Source: Methanofastidiosum sp. (lineage in GTDB: Archaea; Methanobacteriota_B; Thermococci; Methanofastidiosales; Methanofastidiosaceae). From it: a stretch of 57,900 bases of DNA. The position numbers and the translations under genes were made by a program. Position 1 is the first letter of the stretch. The number at the start of each line of letters is the position of its first letter. Positions 2,931 to 15,997 of the stretch are shown here, piece by piece. The notes under the pieces are model-generated. The model did not search any database. It was not told where the DNA came from and saw only the letters and a list, made by a program, of their open reading frames with translations. The stretch is taken from positions 1 to 57,900 of the forward strand of contig JBAYOH010000003.1 in NCBI GenBank assembly GCA_041678455.1. Direction: 5' to 3'.

Positions 2931-4385
2931 TTATTTAAAAATCATATTCTTAAAAAATAATATTTCATACATACTTATCCCTCTAAGAAGTAAAATAATT
3001 CCAAAATATGTACTAACTCCGAGACCAATCACGAAAAATATATCCTTAATTGTTACAGGACATAAAAATATGATTAGTAATGACATAACTAGAGATGCAG
3101 ATATACTTTTTATTATAAAATCTAGGCTATAATCAAGTTTAATGTACTTAGAAGAGTAAAATAAAATAATAACAAAATTTATTACAAAGGCGATTAATGT
3201 TGTAAACGCTGCCCCATTTATTCCAAATATAGGAATAAATATTAAATTTAAGATTAGATTTAAAATTGCAGCAATAATAGTAGAACTTCCAATAATCTTA
3301 GTTTTATTATTGACAACTAAAATATATATAATAATTGACTTAAGTCCGAGTATAATATAACTTAAAGCAACATAAGGGGTAATTAAATAACCATTTGTCG
3401 CTATTTCATTTGTCGAGAGAATTGTTAAAATTGGGCGAGACAAGAGAGACATACCAAAAAAAGCGGGAATTGCCAATAATAGAAAGTATTTCATTGAATA
3501 TTTAAGAATCTTTTTAATTTGATCAATATCATTCTGATCGTAGTTTTTAGATAATGTTTGGGGCAACATAAATACAATCGGGCCATAAAAAATAGATATT
3601 ATACTTCCTAACGCATAACCAGGAGAATAGTATCCCGCAAAGGATACGCCCAGTAATAATGTAATAATATACCTATCACTTGAATTAGTTATCCAATTTG
3701 AAATTGTTCCAGGGACTAATGGGGCACTATAATTTAGATATTTTTTTGTATTAATAAATCTGGGTAAACAAAAACCAACATTTGAAAAAACGTATGCCAT
3801 ACTGCCTGAGAAAACTATGATTTTTGAAAACAATAGCCCCATGATGGCACCAACTATCCCATAATCTGCAAAGATAAAATAAGAAACAAGCGAAAATGTA
3901 AGAATCATTTCAAGTATTTGAAAAAAAGAGTATAGCCTAATCTTATTAAAAGTTCGAAATATGCCAATTAGAGGTGTTTGTATACACTCAAATAATAAAA
4001 GAATCGAGAGTATATGCACAACCTTAAAATTATTGCCAAACAGAGAATTGGCCAATTGATTAGATAATACAAAAAATAATAAAGAAACAATGCTACCTAC
4101 TAAAAATACTATAATAAAGATGGAGTAAAAATCTTCTTTTATTTTATTTTTATCTTTTACGGATGATAAGAATCTAATAATTCCAGTATTTAATCCTAAG
4201 TTTACAATTGGCGGTATCAATCCTATTGTAACGCCTACCATGGCCCATATGCCATATTGTTCAATGGACAAGTTTTTCGTGATTATGGGAACAAAAAAGA
4301 TTTTTATCATTCTATTTAAGATCTCTATAAATCCAATCAATCCTACTCTTTGTGCAAAAAGTTTGTGCTCACTCATTTGCCTCAT
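2931..4385 (-). CDS. Wzx/MOP-family oligosaccharide flippase
   Basis: About 480 aa, many TM segments; YGIW, DRYII, NLILNLIFIPIFGINGAAFTT motifs. Confidence 0.88.
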   Translation of the reverse strand: MRQMSEHKLFAQRVGLIGFIEILNRMIKIFFVPIITKNLSIEQYGIWAMVGVTIGLIPPIVNLGLNTGIIRFLSSVKDKNKIKEDFYSIFIIVFLVGSIVSLLFFVLSNQLANSLFGNNFKVVHILSILLLFECIQTPLIGIFRTFNKIRLYSFFQILEMILTFSLVSYFIFADYGIVGAIMGLLFSKIIVFSGSMAYVFSNVGFCLPRFINTKKYLNYSAPLVPGTISNWITNSSDRYIITLLLGVSFAGYYSPGYALGSIISIFYGPIVFMLPQTLSKNYDQNDIDQIKKILKYSMKYFLLLAIPAFFGMSLLSRPILTILSTNEIATNGYLITPYVALSYIILGLKSIIIYILVVNNKTKIIGSSTIIAAILNLILNLIFIPIFGINGAAFTTLIAFVINFVIILFYSSKYIKLDYSLDFIIKSISASLVMSLLIIFLCPVTIKDIFFVIGLGVSTYFGIILLLRGISMYEILFFKNMIFK

Positions 4386-9008: not shown

Positions 9009-9092
9009 GAAATCTATGATTATAGTAAAAAATCCATTTATTACTATTATGGTTTCTTTAAAATCAAACCAAATCATTTATAAATAGATTCA

Positions 9093-10031
9093 ATGTTGAG
9101 AGAAACCATGAAGCGAGAAGCCCTAGTGTATAACACCGCAATGCTAAATCTTCCTAAAAATACACTGCAATTCCTATTTGGAGTAATTCTATTTGCAATG
9201 GCTGGCGGGGATTACAATATTATAACATGCATAATAGCGGCCTCTGGACTTGGCCTTGGCCTTGGCGCGATATACCTCTTCAATGACCTAACTGATCTAA
9301 AAGAAGACAGACACAATGAAATGAAGATAAGGTGGAAGGCCGTTGCAAACGGCACAATGTCGAGAGATGAATCCATAATATTGATCAAGCTCTCTAGCAT
9401 CACAGGAACGCTACTCGCACTTCTCTCAGGATTAAATTTCTTCTTAATCTATCTATCAGTTATTGCATTAAACATCTGTTATTCCCACCCATCAATCAGA
9501 TGGAAGAATAGCAAGACACTATCAGTAGCCGCAATAGCAACTTTACAGGTATTGAAATTTTCTAGCGGCTGGTTTCTGTTCACACACACAATAGAAGGCT
9601 TTCCAATACTATTTGTTATTGCGCTCGCAATAGGGTATACTTTGCTCTTCATCTACTATAAGAATGACACAGAAAATCTAAAAAAATTAGTTATAGAGGA
9701 CAAGAAACGAGTCTTGCCGTTATCACTTACCTGCATAATTATGCTCTTAACATCATTTTTCATATACACTTTTCCTGCAATTGCTCTATCAGCAATAATA
9801 CTTGGAATACCTACAGTTGGCCTATATTTCCTCACAAAAAATTATATCGGCAAATCTGTAAATGTTGTCTTCATGTACGCTGGGCTTGTCGTGCTGCTTC
9901 TCTCATTTCTACTATTATCAACACCAACGGTCACAGCTATTAATCAGAACATGATCGACCAGAATGCAACTATGAAACAGTACATTTTAGTAACGGCAGA
10001 GCAGATTATCTCAGGGCTTTCTGGAAGGTAA
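9093..10031 (+). CDS. UbiA-superfamily prenyltransferase
   Basis: YLFNDLTDLKED Asp-rich motif; multi-TM. Confidence 0.78.
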   Translation: MLRETMKREALVYNTAMLNLPKNTLQFLFGVILFAMAGGDYNIITCIIAASGLGLGLGAIYLFNDLTDLKEDRHNEMKIRWKAVANGTMSRDESIILIKLSSITGTLLALLSGLNFFLIYLSVIALNICYSHPSIRWKNSKTLSVAAIATLQVLKFSSGWFLFTHTIEGFPILFVIALAIGYTLLFIYYKNDTENLKKLVIEDKKRVLPLSLTCIIMLLTSFFIYTFPAIALSAIILGIPTVGLYFLTKNYIGKSVNVVFMYAGLVVLLLSFLLLSTPTVTAINQNMIDQNATMKQYILVTAEQIISGLSGR

Positions 10032-10047
10032 TCGGATAATCTTTGAC

Positions 10048-11100: not shown

Positions 11101-11311
11101 ATATAAAAGAAAAGCTTTCAAGGATTAATCTTGACAAAGTGGAAGCCACAAAATATTCAAGAACGAAGCTGGAACAATAATTACAATACCATATCATTCA
11201 GGAACGAGTCTCCATCCAAAAGTATTGAGAGAGATATTAAATAGTGTAGATATTTCTCTTGAGGATTTCAAAAAATTAATTTGATATGTTCTAGTTTTAG
11301 GATATGATTAA
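11101..11311 (+). pseudogene. hicA: Degenerate duplicate of hicA (11663-11919) with a 46-bp deletion and ATG>ATA
   Basis: Direct alignment; 4 mismatches over about 176 bp in the 3' part, 7 over 41 bp in the 5' part; deletion between CAAAGTG microhomologies. Confidence 0.85.
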
Positions 11312-11668: not shown

Positions 11669-11892
11669 AGGAAAAACTTCCAAGAATTAGTCCTGACAAA
11701 GTGATAAAAGCATTGGAAAAACTTGGATTTTCTCAAGTAAGGCAAAGTGGAAGCCATAAAATATTCAAGAACGAAGCTGGAACAAGGATTACAATACCAT
11801 ATCATTCAGGAACGAGTCTCCATCCAAAAGTATTGAGAGAGATATTAAATAGTGTAGATATTTCTCTTGAGGATTTCAAAAAATTAATTTGA
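11665..11892 (+). CDS. hicA: HicA toxin
   Basis: LGFSQVRQSGSHKIF...ITIPYH; ATGA overlap with hicB. Confidence 0.88.
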   Translation: MKEKLPRISPDKVIKALEKLGFSQVRQSGSHKIFKNEAGTRITIPYHSGTSLHPKVLREILNSVDISLEDFKKLI

Positions 11893-11919
11893 TATGTACT
11901 AGTTTTAGGATATGATTAA

Positions 11920-12236
11920 GAGAATTTTGATTAACTTCGACCCTATTTCCGCTATTAGTTAAATTTACATTCCAATAGCGGGTTTTAGTTGTCATGGGCA
12001 GCTTGATTGATTTTGCCTTGAAAAGAGAGTATGAACGCCTTCAAAAGCTAGGTGACAGATTAAACTATATTATCAGTTTCATACCCCTTCTAAAAGAATG
12101 GCATAGCTTCAGCTATCGGCAAATTTTGGGGAATTGCCCAAAATTTGGATAAAAAGAGTTAAGAAACACGATAAAGCGCTCCAAGATTTATAAAATTGAA
12201 AAGATAAGAAAAAAATAGAGATTAATCGTAGTCCTC
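11920..12236 (+). mobile_element. Internally deleted IS5-type element (MITE-like, 317 bp)
   Basis: Imperfect terminal IRs GAGAATTTTGATTAA / TTAATCGTAGTCCTC; residual transposase N-terminus MGSLIDFALKREYERLQKLGDRL from 11994; 3' 100 bp match 1-102. Confidence 0.7.
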
Positions 12237-12271
12237 TCTACTTTAATTTTTTCTCGTCTTGTTCGTAATCT

Positions 12272-12760
12272 CTAAGGCTTCCAGACTTTTAAGAAATCGA
12301 CCCTTTCAAGGTCGCTGTCATTTGTGGCGATATTCTCTATGCCATTATACTTGCACGTAGCGGCATGGATTGCATCATTAATCAAAAGAATATCTAAAAA
12401 TAAGTAAGAGCTCTCTAAAATTATTTCGTTAATATCCAAAACTTTAATATTTTCTATTTTAGATATCTCAAGAACAGCGTTCATAGGCCCTTTAATTTTC
12501 TTGAGAACATCAGAGTTATTTTTTATTATTTTTATAGAATTATGAATTGGTGTTTCATACTCCCTAGAAACATTTAATATGAGTAGTTTATGATAAACTT
12601 CAGAAATTACAATAGGATTGATATAACCTGTAATCTCACCAGATTTAATTTTGTTTAATAATAAATTACACGATTTAAAGTTACCAGTTGTGGTAATGGA
12701 ATAGATAAAAATATTGCTATCTAAAAATATATTACCTTCAATGAATTCATTAAGTTTCAT
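12272..12760 (-). CDS. vapC: PIN-domain toxin VapC (copy A)
   Basis: FLDSNIFI, SE, NDAIH, TNDSD acidic PIN residues. Confidence 0.9.
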   Translation of the reverse strand: MKLNEFIEGNIFLDSNIFIYSITTTGNFKSCNLLLNKIKSGEITGYINPIVISEVYHKLLILNVSREYETPIHNSIKIIKNNSDVLKKIKGPMNAVLEISKIENIKVLDINEIILESSYLFLDILLINDAIHAATCKYNGIENIATNDSDLERVDFLKVWKP

Positions 12761-12767
12761 GAAATCA

Positions 12768-12956
12768 TCATAAAAGCAAATCTAATTCTTCTTCTAATAT
12801 CTGTTTTACCATTTCGTTTGAAGCTTTTATTTTCGTTTTGAATGGGGGTTTGTCCTCTGGTAATATCTGAACTAAGACTTCCTTGTCCTCTATGTTAATC
12901 TTCTCAAGAGGATAAATAATACCGTCCTTTATCCTTGCATGGATTATTATTCCCAT
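12768..12956 (-). CDS. DUF104/AF2212-like antitoxin (copy A)
   Basis: IHARIKDGIIYPLEKI N-terminal motif, upstream of PIN gene. Confidence 0.78.
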   Translation of the reverse strand: MGIIIHARIKDGIIYPLEKINIEDKEVLVQILPEDKPPFKTKIKASNEMVKQILEEELDLLL

Positions 12957-13091
12957 AAATATTACTACAATTACATGTTTTTAAGTATTGCTGTAAAATT
13001 CCTTGAATGGACTAAAAGGAAACAAAGGCGGACTGTCACCATCATCAATCAAGATAAAAAAAATCTGTTATCTTTTTCTTCTTTTCTTACA

Positions 13092-13592
13092 TTAAGGCTT
13101 CCAGACTTTTAAGAAATCGACCCTTTCAAGGTCGCTGTCATTTGTGGCGATATTCTCTATGCCATTATATTTGCACGTAGCGGCATGGATTGCATCGTTT
13201 GGTAAAAGCCCGTATTCTTTCGATAAATCAAATGAAAGTTTGGATATATCTTCTCCAAGTTGTAAGATTTTTATCCCTTCATACATATATAATTCTTCAA
13301 TCACCTTACTTGATTTTTTAAGTTTAGAAATTATACCTGGATTCTCTTTTAAATAAATTTTTGATTTAGACGGGTCTAATTTCTTTGTTTCTGATATTTC
13401 AATCATTATCAGTTTATAGAATAATTCACTTATAACTAAAGGCGATACAAAACCTAATAATTCACCATATTTTACCCTTGAAATATAATCTCTACAATCA
13501 TTACTAAATTTATTATTTGATTTTACCGTGTAAAGAAAAATGTTGGTATCTATAAAAGCATCTTCATGTAATAGATTAATAGTTACACTCAA
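13092..13592 (-). CDS. vapC: PIN-domain toxin VapC (copy B)
   Basis: FIDTNIFL, SE, LLPNDAIH, TNDSD. Confidence 0.9.
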   Translation of the reverse strand: MSVTINLLHEDAFIDTNIFLYTVKSNNKFSNDCRDYISRVKYGELLGFVSPLVISELFYKLIMIEISETKKLDPSKSKIYLKENPGIISKLKKSSKVIEELYMYEGIKILQLGEDISKLSFDLSKEYGLLPNDAIHAATCKYNGIENIATNDSDLERVDFLKVWKP

Positions 13593-13777
13593 GACATATC
13601 CTCATCTTCTAATATCTCTTGGAATACTTCATCAGAAACGTCAAAACTTACACTAAAAGCAGACCTATCAGGTATTATATCGTCTATTTTAACTAAGACT
13701 TCCTTGTCGCCTAAGTCAATCTTCTCAAGAGGATAAATAATACCGTCCTTTATCCTTGCATGGATTATTATTCCCAT
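13589..13777 (-). CDS. DUF104/AF2212-like antitoxin (copy B)
   Basis: First 20 aa identical to copy A. Confidence 0.78.
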   Translation of the reverse strand: MGIIIHARIKDGIIYPLEKIDLGDKEVLVKIDDIIPDRSAFSVSFDVSDEVFQEILEDEDMS

Positions 13778-13937
13778 AAATATTACTACAATTGCATGTT
13801 TTTAAGTATTGCTATGAACTCCCATCTATCAAATACAAGGAAAAGGATATATAAAATTTAATTTTTAATTTCTTTTTCTATTTCTAATTTTATGAACACA
13901 TAGATATAAATATTATTGTAACGATTATGAAATTATT

Positions 13938-14453
13938 TTGGCCCTTCTAAAAGGAAAGAGCCATATTAGAGAAATATCAAGAAAACTGAAAACAAATCAG
14001 ACTTCAGTTAAAAGAAGGCTTGATGAGCTATACAAACAAAATATAGTTGACTACAGGATAGAGGGAAAGAATTATGTCTATTTCATTAAGAAAAGCTTAG
14101 AGGCAAGAAGCTTTGTGATAATTTCTGAAAGTTATAGTTTTATCTTGTTTTTGAAAAAATATCCTTACTTAAAAGGCATGATTAAAAAGATTACAGAAAA
14201 AGAAAATATCGACATGGCAATAATCTTCGGATCGTATGCCAAAAGCATTGCTAACGAATCAAGTGATATAGATCTTTATATAGAATCAGAAAACCTCGAT
14301 TTAAAAAAAGAAATTGAGTTAATAGATTCAAGACTAAGCGTTAAAATGGGTAGATACGATAAAGAAAACCTATTAATAAAAGAGATTGAATCAAACCATA
14401 TAATCATAAAAGGGATTGAAAAGTTTTATAAAAAAAACAGATTTTTTGATTAA
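13938..14453 (+). CDS. HTH-fused nucleotidyltransferase (MNT antitoxin-like); start uncertain
   Basis: N-terminal wHTH (HIREISRKL), IFGSYAK, SDIDLY. Confidence 0.8.
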   Translation: MALLKGKSHIREISRKLKTNQTSVKRRLDELYKQNIVDYRIEGKNYVYFIKKSLEARSFVIISESYSFILFLKKYPYLKGMIKKITEKENIDMAIIFGSYAKSIANESSDIDLYIESENLDLKKEIELIDSRLSVKMGRYDKENLLIKEIESNHIIIKGIEKFYKKNRFFD

Positions 14454-14469
14454 GCTAATAGATGAGAAG

Positions 14470-14495
14470 AAAAATAGAGGTTAATCGTAGCCCTC
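14470..14495 (+). mobile_element. Isolated IS right-end relic
   Basis: AAAAATAGAGGTTAATCGTAGCCCTC matches ends at 77-102 and 12211-12236. Confidence 0.65.
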
Positions 14496-14563
14496 GTAAT
14501 TATTTATCAGGCATCTCTATTTAATGGGGAAATTTTATAAATAATTAAAAACAGTTGATTATC

Positions 14564-15997
14564 ATGGAAAAAATAAATAAAGAACAATTAATTAAGACGC
14601 TCGATATACATCAGAGCGGGTATGTTAATTTTGATCTACCTAATCCTAAAAATGGAGAATATCTTCTTGCAGTATTTCACTTAGTATCTGGGGGGAAGTT
14701 AAATATTTTACAAGCTGCAGCAGAAGTTGCGGCTGAGTCCTCCACAGGTACAAATTTGAACGTAAAGACTGAAACCCCCTTCTCAAAAGAGATGAATGCC
14801 ATAGTTTACAAAATTGATCAGGATAAAGACCTTGTTTGGCTGGCTTATCCATGGAGGCTTTTTGACAGAGGCGGAAACGTGCAGAACATATTGACATACC
14901 TTGTCGGAAATGTCCTTGGGATGAAGGAAGTAAGCGCATTAAAATTGCTTGATGTCTGGTTTCCGCCTTCAATGCTAGAGCAGTATGATGGCCCAAGCTA
15001 TACACTAGATGATATGAGAAAATATTTAGGTGTCTATGATAGGCCAATTCTTGGGAGTATAATAAAACCCAAAATGGGATTGACTTCAGCAGAGTATGCA
15101 GAAGCTGCTTATGATTTCTGGGTGGGCGGCGGAGACTTTGTTAAAAATGACGAGCCGCAGGCAAATCAGGATTTCTGCCCATATGAAAAGATGGTGACAA
15201 ATGTCAAAGCCGCTATGGATAAAGCGGTCAAGGAAACAGGGGAGAAAAAAATCCACTCATTTAATGTCTCTGCGGCAGATTTTGACACAATGATTGAAAG
15301 ATGTGAACTTATAAGAAACGCTGGATTTGAACCTGGAAGCTACGCATTTTTAATTGATGGGATTATTGCCGGGTGGATGGCTGTGCAAACCTTAAGAAGA
15401 AAATATCCTGACGTTTTTATACACTTTCATAGAGCAGGTCATGGCGCATATACTAGGACAGAAAATCCAATAGGATTTTCAGTATTAGTTTTATCTAAAT
15501 TTGCAAGATTGGCAGGTGCGTCTGGAATTCACACAGGGACTGCAGGTGTTGGAAAAATGCAAGGTAGCCCTGAAGAAGACATTGTTGCAGCACAGAACAT
15601 TTTGCGTTTTAAATCTAAAGGGCATTTCTTTGAGCAGGAATGGTCAAAAATATTTGAGGGTGACAAAGATGCAATAGCTCTTGCTCAAGCAGATACCGCA
15701 CGCCACGTTATTTTAGAGGATGACAGCTGGAGAGGCATGAAAAAATGCTGCCCTATTGTTTCTGGTGGCCTAAATCCAACTTTGCTGAAGCCGTTCATCG
15801 ATGTAATGGGAAATATCGACTTCATTACAACAATGGGTGCAGGCTGCCACGCTCATCCAAAAGGGACAACAGCCGGGGCAAAAGCATTGGCCCAGGCATG
15901 TGAGGCATACCAAAAAGGGATTGACATTAAGGAATATGCCAAGAGCCACAAAGAACTCGAAGAGGCTATTGAGTTTTTCTCTAAAGGAAAGAAGTAG
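14564..15997 (+). CDS. rbcL: RuBisCO, form II/III (Methanococcoides-type)
   Basis: GGDFVKNDE carbamylation motif, HxH (HFHRAGH), loop 6 GVGKM, SGG; C-terminal insertion EWSKI...HVILEDDSWRGMKKCCP typical of form II/III. Confidence 0.92.
   Translation: MEKINKEQLIKTLDIHQSGYVNFDLPNPKNGEYLLAVFHLVSGGKLNILQAAAEVAAESSTGTNLNVKTETPFSKEMNAIVYKIDQDKDLVWLAYPWRLFDRGGNVQNILTYLVGNVLGMKEVSALKLLDVWFPPSMLEQYDGPSYTLDDMRKYLGVYDRPILGSIIKPKMGLTSAEYAEAAYDFWVGGGDFVKNDEPQANQDFCPYEKMVTNVKAAMDKAVKETGEKKIHSFNVSAADFDTMIERCELIRNAGFEPGSYAFLIDGIIAGWMAVQTLRRKYPDVFIHFHRAGHGAYTRTENPIGFSVLVLSKFARLAGASGIHTGTAGVGKMQGSPEEDIVAAQNILRFKSKGHFFEQEWSKIFEGDKDAIALAQADTARHVILEDDSWRGMKKCCPIVSGGLNPTLLKPFIDVMGNIDFITTMGAGCHAHPKGTTAGAKALAQACEAYQKGIDIKEYAKSHKELEEAIEFFSKGKK

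Follow-up and report, generated by a model that had tools for sequence, protein, structure and literature searches.

Evidence for recurrent gene conversion at the ends of two adjacent toxin-antitoxin operons in a Methanofastidiosum genome

The window analyzed here is a stretch of 57,900 nt from Methanofastidiosum sp. (contig JBAYOH010000003.1, assembly GCA_041678455.1). It is one whole contig of G000, a 1.57-Mb metagenome-assembled genome (MAG) in 79 contigs from a genus with MAGs under the title Methanofastidiosum sp. Two operons, each encoding an AF2212-like antitoxin and a PIN toxin, lie head to tail on the minus strand at a distance of 100 nt: operon A at 12272-12992 and operon B at 13092-13813. 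Judged by their sequences, A and B are VapBC-like type II toxin-antitoxin (TA) operons with a predicted function. Their ends, hereafter the arms, are nearly identical, whereas the core between the arms is highly divergent. We assign a probability of about 85% to the reading that this pattern reflects recurrent gene conversion between old adjacent TA paralogues, confined to the arms and still segregating among strains. The features of the two operons are as follows.

12272-12760, minus strand: toxA, PIN-domain (VapC-like) toxin of 162 aa; open reading frame (ORF), Pfam PIN 57 bits, orthologue in the congener G001 91% identical (aa).
12273-12376, minus strand: 3' arm of A (last ~34 codons of toxA, to the stop); one mismatch to B, at 12350.
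12768-12956, minus strand: antA, AF2212-like antitoxin of 62 aa; ORF, Pfam AF2212-like 16.9 bits, G001 orthologue 89% identical.
12870-12992, minus strand: 5' arm of A (promoter and antA codons 1-29); 7 sites polymorphic among strains.
12957-12992, minus strand: predicted core promoter of operon A; TATA-like CTTAAAAA at 12978-12985, ~26 nt 5' of the ATG.
12993-13091, minus strand: spacer from the toxB stop to the A promoter; T8 run (A8 on the plus strand, 13057-13064).
13092-13592, minus strand: toxB, PIN-domain toxin of 166 aa with a TTG start; ORF, Pfam PIN 69.8 bits, orthologues in six congeners 72-89% identical.
13093-13196, minus strand: 3' arm of B; derived states in common with A.
13589-13777, minus strand: antB, AF2212-like antitoxin of 62 aa; ORF, Pfam AF2212-like 19.8 bits.
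13691-13813, minus strand: 5' arm of B (promoter and antB codons 1-29), the probable main hot spot of conversion; 16 sites polymorphic among strains.

A repeat search recovered direct repeats at spacings of 821 and 820 nt, in agreement with a preliminary description of this DNA, made from the sequence alone, which had reported two modules of ~720 bp at these offsets with near-identical ends. The 5' arms (12870-12992 and 13691-13813) comprise the 36 nt upstream of the ATG and 29 codons, and differ at 6 of 123 nt. The 3' arms (12273-12376 and 13093-13196) differ at a single position out of 104 nt (12350/13170), and their limit falls inside the stop codon, the third base of which differs between A and B. 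The last 35 residues of ToxA and ToxB (NDAIHAAT...KVWKP) are identical, and the longest identical run between the two copies is 77 nt. The same description had correctly identified both operons as VapBC-like, had placed the common segments at the core promoter plus antitoxin N-terminus and at the toxin C-terminus, and had found the contiguous core (antitoxin C-terminus plus most of the toxin) to be only remotely similar. Core DNA identity was 48-52%, with 36 of 124 residues matching in the N-terminal part of the toxin and 9 of 31 in the C-terminal part of the antitoxin (~29% overall). By segment, A and B were 97% identical in the promoter, 95% in the antitoxin N-terminal segment, and 99% in the toxin C-terminal segment, versus 52% and 48% in the antitoxin C-terminal and toxin N-terminal segments, respectively.

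At positions where A and B encode the same amino acid, the codons were identical at 57 of 59 positions in the arms and at 24 of 45 in the core (P = 1e-7), indicating that protein constraint alone cannot explain the arms. An account without recombination would hold that the arms are no more than the segments of two old paralogues under the strongest protein and promoter constraint. It is consistent with the conservation of the arm protein sequence in all module types of the genus, and in the X and D types the synonymous identity of the arms equals the saturated baseline (0.32-0.66), so that constraint suffices there. For the G000 pair, however, it is contradicted by the codon identity, by derived substitutions common to both copies, by arms that are the most rather than the least polymorphic segments among strains, by B arms that are less orthologue-like than the B core, and by incongruent arm and core trees. 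Protein constraint alone was therefore rejected for this pair, where it is scarcely credible, and accepted as sufficient for the X and D types. A scan of 11800-14600 against Rfam (E <= 0.1) returned zero matches, so no known RNA accounts for the nucleotide conservation of the arms.

Comparison with orthologues identified the part of each operon that had moved. B-type modules were single in the six congeners, and the core of B was 87-89% identical (aa) to the cores of G004, G002, and G001; the core of A was 91% identical (aa) to that of the A module of G001. When G000_B was compared with the A module of G001, codon identity was 0.84 in the arms and 0.50 in the core (P = 3e-4). The reverse was seen when G000_B was compared with its own orthologues, with values of 0.64-0.65 in the arms and 0.82-0.86 in the core (P = 0.02 and 0.001). 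Nucleotide identities followed the same pattern: against its own orthologues, G000_B reached 90-91% in the toxin core and 80-85% in the coding arms, and G000_A matched its orthologue in G001 at 93% in the core but at only 88% in the toxin C-terminal segment. Two derived toxin states were present in both G000 copies and in no orthologue, namely DL (GACCTT) for DF and NGIEN for YDIKN or YDINN.

The trees were consistent with these comparisons. In the core tree, the A clade was supported at 100/100 and separated from B by more than 2 substitutions per site, and a topology constrained to group G000_A with G000_B was rejected (p-AU 3e-36). In the arm tree, G000_A and G000_B were sisters (86/86, distance 0.027), and a constraint grouping G000_A with G001_A was rejected (p-AU 0.018). 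By identity, codons, and trees, the paralogues were closer to each other than to their orthologues inside the tracts and the reverse held outside, which is the pattern by which gene conversion is recognized.

Gene order was compared in the chromosomal slot that is bounded by the RuBisCO gene and by the gene at 9063-10039. In G000 this slot holds a nucleotidyltransferase gene, B, A, a repeat element, and HicBA; G002 and G007 have just the nucleotidyltransferase gene and B; and in G001 a HEPN/MNT pair and a 27-nt toxin 3'-end relic precede A, the sole module there. B has kept the nucleotidyltransferase neighbor seen in G002 and G007, which represents the ancestral context. Because both the neighbor and the core of B are ancestral and only its ends are foreign, the arms appear to have been converted, mostly from A to B, and the core not to have been replaced. 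The A-type module of G001 and its B-type pseudogene lie on different contigs. Taken together, the separate orthologues and the variable slot content argue from sequence that the lineages of A and B are old and were inherited separately, within a TA island subject to much gain and loss. The relic in G001 (locus L042, G001:C7, 2501-2527) reads as a PIN toxin 3' end (..LLKVWKP*) and is located just after the HEPN/MNT pair, ~300 nt upstream of A; it suggests that the locus once had an upstream module and has since lost it.

The tandem position of the copies and their near-identical arms could also be expected if a single operon had duplicated in tandem recently and its core had then diverged very fast under positive selection. 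Such a duplication requires the 100-nt spacer and the region upstream of B to be near-identical, which they are not; moreover, each core has its own orthologues elsewhere (87-91% aa), and synonymous sites in the core are saturated (0.53 vs 0.82-0.90 for orthologues). We rejected this explanation on the separate orthologues and the saturated synonymous sites, and consider its probability next to negligible.

We then turned to variation among strains, using the window and 13 conspecific assemblies (14 haplotypes, 97.7-100% identical over the locus). Polymorphic sites made up 25 of 454 nt in the arms and 8 of 987 nt in the cores (odds ratio 7.1, P = 1.6e-7). The 5' arm of antB formed a graded series: MEIIV..KNG..NIED in L116, which is the B-ancestral state found in B orthologues. 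Most strains had MGIII..KNG..NIED, L117 had MGIII..KNG..IDLDD, and the window has MGIII..KDG..IDLGD, the A-like end of the series. The 5' arm of antA read ..KDG..IDLDD in L106 (A-ancestral, as in G001_A), ..KDG..NIED in most strains (a B-like patch), and ..KNG..NIED in L116. Several of the 7 polymorphic sites in the 5' arm of A showed the same two alleles at the paralogous B site, and at 13747/48, 13717, 13714, and 13709 both alleles were present at both paralogous sites. The overall count of alleles shared with the paralogue (25/25) is trivial in the way it was computed and carries no weight here. The patchwork states imply that tracts of tens of nucleotides have passed both from A to B and from B to A.

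The 3' arm of B was invariant among the 14 haplotypes, and the 3' arms of A and B were identical over 104 nt in five strains (L105, L107, L109, L111, and L115). Read from these haplotypes, the 3' arm would have been homogenized before the sampled strains split, and the 5' arm is still segregating. The preliminary description had named a one-off gene conversion between old paralogs as its fallback; conversion was right, but not its one-off character, as the process is evidently recurrent and segregates among strains.

Some points weigh against recurrent conversion of the arms as we describe it. The G000 3' arm differs from that of G001_A at 12 of 102 sites, so the direction of transfer is not clean, and either a third donor or later mutations spread by conversion would be needed. 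In the window, the site at which A has a B-like patch is exactly that at which B has an A-like patch, which would call for two events in different strains and subsequent inter-strain recombination, or for a reciprocal exchange. Finally, metagenome consensus contigs could mix co-occurring strains; yet identical haplotypes recur across samples.

An assembly artefact, in which two strain alleles or two distant loci were joined through repeats, would be a concern in a MAG of 79 contigs, since repeats of ~100 nt can mislead short-k assemblies. An exact-protein look-up, however, recovered the order B-spacer-A in at least 10 independent assemblies from different samples and assemblers (MEGAHIT k141, SPAdes, and JGI pipelines), including one 130-kb contig; the record names of some refer to biogas-fermenter or anaerobic-digester metagenomes. 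The longest identical run of 77 nt is also shorter than the k values used. The recurrence of the same tandem indicates that it is not an artefact, an explanation that had been listed as a possible refutation of the earlier description and that we regard as exceedingly improbable.

The preliminary description had proposed that the core is an exchangeable cassette between constant arms, which would give new non-cross-reacting pairs under shared regulation and amount to TA diversification by recombination; in such a model, cores would be exchanged by double crossover. Several observations across the genus are in line with it. At least three core types (A, B, and C) occur with very similar ends, type C having the same promoter, the same first 14 antitoxin residues, and the same toxin C-terminus in G009, G001, G016, and the metagenome locus L057. 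The tree distance between A and B was ~0.16 for arms versus more than 2.4 for cores, compared with ~0.55 and 1.5 for the X type, a ratio about five times smaller for A-B. Codon identity between A- and B-type arms of different species was 0.67-0.70, versus 0.42 in the core (P ~0.005-0.01, uncorrected). The same chromosomal slot may hold A only (G001), B only (G002 and G007), or both (G000), and a long variant of the upstream spacer precedes the A core in G000, the B core in G013 and G009, and the C core in L057, the spacer-like sequence being seen upstream of the B core of G013 and the C core of L057.

The cores, however, are vertically traceable (A 91%, B 87-89% aa), B sits in its ancestral context, and it is the arms of B, not its core, that are foreign and A-like. 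Across the 1.57-Mb genome each arm was present just twice, with no further core between them, and cores A and B were the only ones in the 13 conspecific assemblies, (near-)invariant and, on every contig that covered the pair, arranged as B then A; the further cores that had been predicted between the same arms are therefore absent at both levels, although a third core with similar ends is found across the genus. A scan of the genome contigs returned five loci already known and one further short toxin C-terminal fragment. A scan of metagenome contigs returned 49 relatives, among them C-type and X-type modules but no new close A or B module. Both A and B are complete operons of the expressed type, with full promoters and start codons, rather than silent orphans, and no recombinase is encoded among the neighboring genes. 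Most cross-type, cross-genome arm comparisons did not exceed the synonymous baseline significantly. Differential loss from an ancestral array accounts for loci with A alone or B alone, and the toxin relic upstream of A persists in G001. For these reasons, exchange of the core as a cassette appears distinctly unlikely.

Silent, promoterless donors that supply a single expression site, with the variable part moving, characterize the orphan toxin/immunity cassettes of CDI/Rhs systems and the antigenic variation of pilE/pilS. These systems resemble the cassette model in that variable cores, such as toxin-immunity segments, stand beside a conserved recombination handle. They differ from A and B, which are complete operons whose variable parts stay in place while the conserved parts move.

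A broader form of the idea would treat the arms as genus-wide recombination handles that repeatedly re-associate at least three cores with a common regulatory front end and a common catalytic back end, arrays expanding or contracting through the arms. This is unlikely in our view. If true, the scheme would be a natural, modular one in which paralogous TA pairs share their regulation yet remain insulated. Instead, the genus-wide similarity of the ends is read as recurrent conversion wherever modules are neighbors.

Recurrent conversion of the arms may be pictured as follows. A and B are anciently diverged paralogues, predicted type II TA operons that each have a predicted promoter and probably also a separate oligo-T terminator. 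Short-tract homologous recombination between the copies would repeatedly overwrite the promoter plus antitoxin N-terminal domain and the last 35 toxin codons, these being the segments that protein and promoter constraint would hold at ~85% similarity. The last 35 toxin codons carry two of the four catalytic acidic residues. Outwardly, the tracts may stop where the two copies cease to be homologous (upstream of the promoter, and at the stop codon); the inner limits may be set by cores too divergent (~50% nt) to pair, and probably also by selection against chimeric toxin/antitoxin interfaces. A appears to have been the donor in most transfers, and B in at least one patch. As the promoter/operator and the antitoxin N-terminal domain are the same, A and B are probably co-regulated or cross-regulated, and the divergent cores would keep their neutralization interfaces separate.

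Gene conversion between vapBC25 and vapBC31 has been reported in M. tuberculosis (PMC13061034), and prokaryotic gene conversion and concerted evolution are the subject of a review by Santoyo & Romero (2005), as cited in PMC13061034. The A/B case is like other prokaryotic conversion in showing non-reciprocal short-tract transfer between paralogues of one genome and converted segments that are local diversity hot spots with paralogues closer than orthologues. It is unlike reported cases in that the tracts are split between the two ends of a two-gene operon, sparing the whole predicted interface, and in that the event is segregating among strains of an uncultured, methanogen-related archaeon. Concerted evolution in a TA island is seen clearly here, but the case is an ordinary one and reveals no new mechanism.

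The locus nevertheless offers a clean natural example of segmental concerted evolution within a two-gene operon. The promoter, the antitoxin N-terminal domain, and the catalytic C-terminus of the toxin recombine freely, and the antitoxin C-terminus and the N-terminal three quarters of the toxin never do. The boundary between arm and core is a testable map of cognate-specificity residues in AF2212-like/PIN pairs, and the pattern predicts one common operator with cross-regulation but separate neutralization. It also illustrates that local diversity hot spots in metagenome populations can stem from exchange between paralogues.

The family assignment rests on several profile comparisons. Both toxins scored well above the PF01850 (PIN) cut-off of 23.6 bits, and the acidic residues D14, E42/E54, D129, and D148/D150 were invariant in 7 homologues; the toxin profile gave a remote match to VapC 7by2. 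The antitoxins scored just under the AF2212-like (PF01954) cut-off of 21.6 bits, whereas the antB orthologue of G004 scored above it (22.4 bits), and the more distant E/F-type partners of homologous PIN toxins in the same genus reached 50-55 bits. The antitoxin N-terminus matched residues 4-33 of AF_2212 (PDB 2NWT) weakly. No NCBIfam match was obtained for any of the four proteins. A and B resemble archaeal VapBC-type pairs with an AF2212-like (UPF0165/DUF104) antitoxin, such as AF_2212 of A. fulgidus, in that a small antitoxin gene abuts or overlaps a downstream PIN toxin gene and in that the PIN acidic residues are kept. They differ in that their antitoxins fall just short of the Pfam cut-off and in that their function is a predicted one.

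Within operon B, the antB stop overlaps the toxB TTG start by 4 nt, and in operon A, antA ends 7 nt before toxA; the same pairing of antitoxin and toxin was seen in 29 distinct related modules. The same 36 nt precede both operons, each with the TATA-like CTTAAAAA ~26 nt before the ATG, and this promoter segment is kept in every module of types A, B, C, and X across the genus. The position of the TATA-like element suggests a leaderless transcript, and the T8 run after toxB is likely an archaeal terminator. Inspection of the 5' arm by eye for a large operator inverted repeat yielded only a 6-bp CAATTG palindrome, and no operator is claimed.

A parallel arrangement was observed in G001 (L036, G001:C99, 700-1560 vs 3290-4150), where a B pseudogene and a C-type module lie 2.5 kb apart and match at 77 of 80 nt of the toxin 3' arm, although at the DNA level the two cores are unrelated. 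An intergenic element of ~60-140 nt (83-91% identity) is also common to the regions upstream of both, and the C module has it again on its downstream side. In the TA island of the window, a HicA 3' fragment without an intact ORF (11135-11311) was 98% identical over 177 nt to the intact HicA at 11743-11919, 608 nt away, and the adjoining 89 nt were only 75% identical, a second segmental homogenization in the same island.

B-type toxin genes were broken in three congeners (G001, G009, and G013; loci L036, L038, and L039, respectively), by a stop and a 17-nt deletion in one and by frameshifts in two. The 62-aa antitoxin genes beside them were intact, indicating that toxins decay first.

The genes around the locus encode RuBisCO, nucleotidyltransferases, HepT-like proteins, HicAB, and UbiA. 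The RuBisCO large-subunit gene (14555-15997; Pfam RuBisCO_large_N and RuBisCO_large) adjoins the TA island, with synteny conserved in G001 and G002. The window also contains, at 13814-13937 and 12993-13091, an intergenic motif, AAAGATTCTTTTTCTT..TTGATTGATGAG, which is present as well on genome contigs at C66:1928, C66:2703, and C39:13069. It recurs on both sides of TA modules in several genomes, in a short form and in a long form with ~45 nt extra, and could be a terminator/promoter region or a repeat.

A dispersed repeat of ~330 bp occupies 11906-12237, in the interval from HicA to the toxA stop; its end is 36 nt away from toxA, and it encloses a small ORF (11994-12152). The repeat is also found at 1-103, with its terminal 26 nt at 14470-14495, and the 1.57-Mb genome has more than 20 copies in all, some full and others partial. 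Many of these are at the ends of contigs, implying that the repeat breaks the assembly; from its sequence and dispersal, it looks MITE-like.

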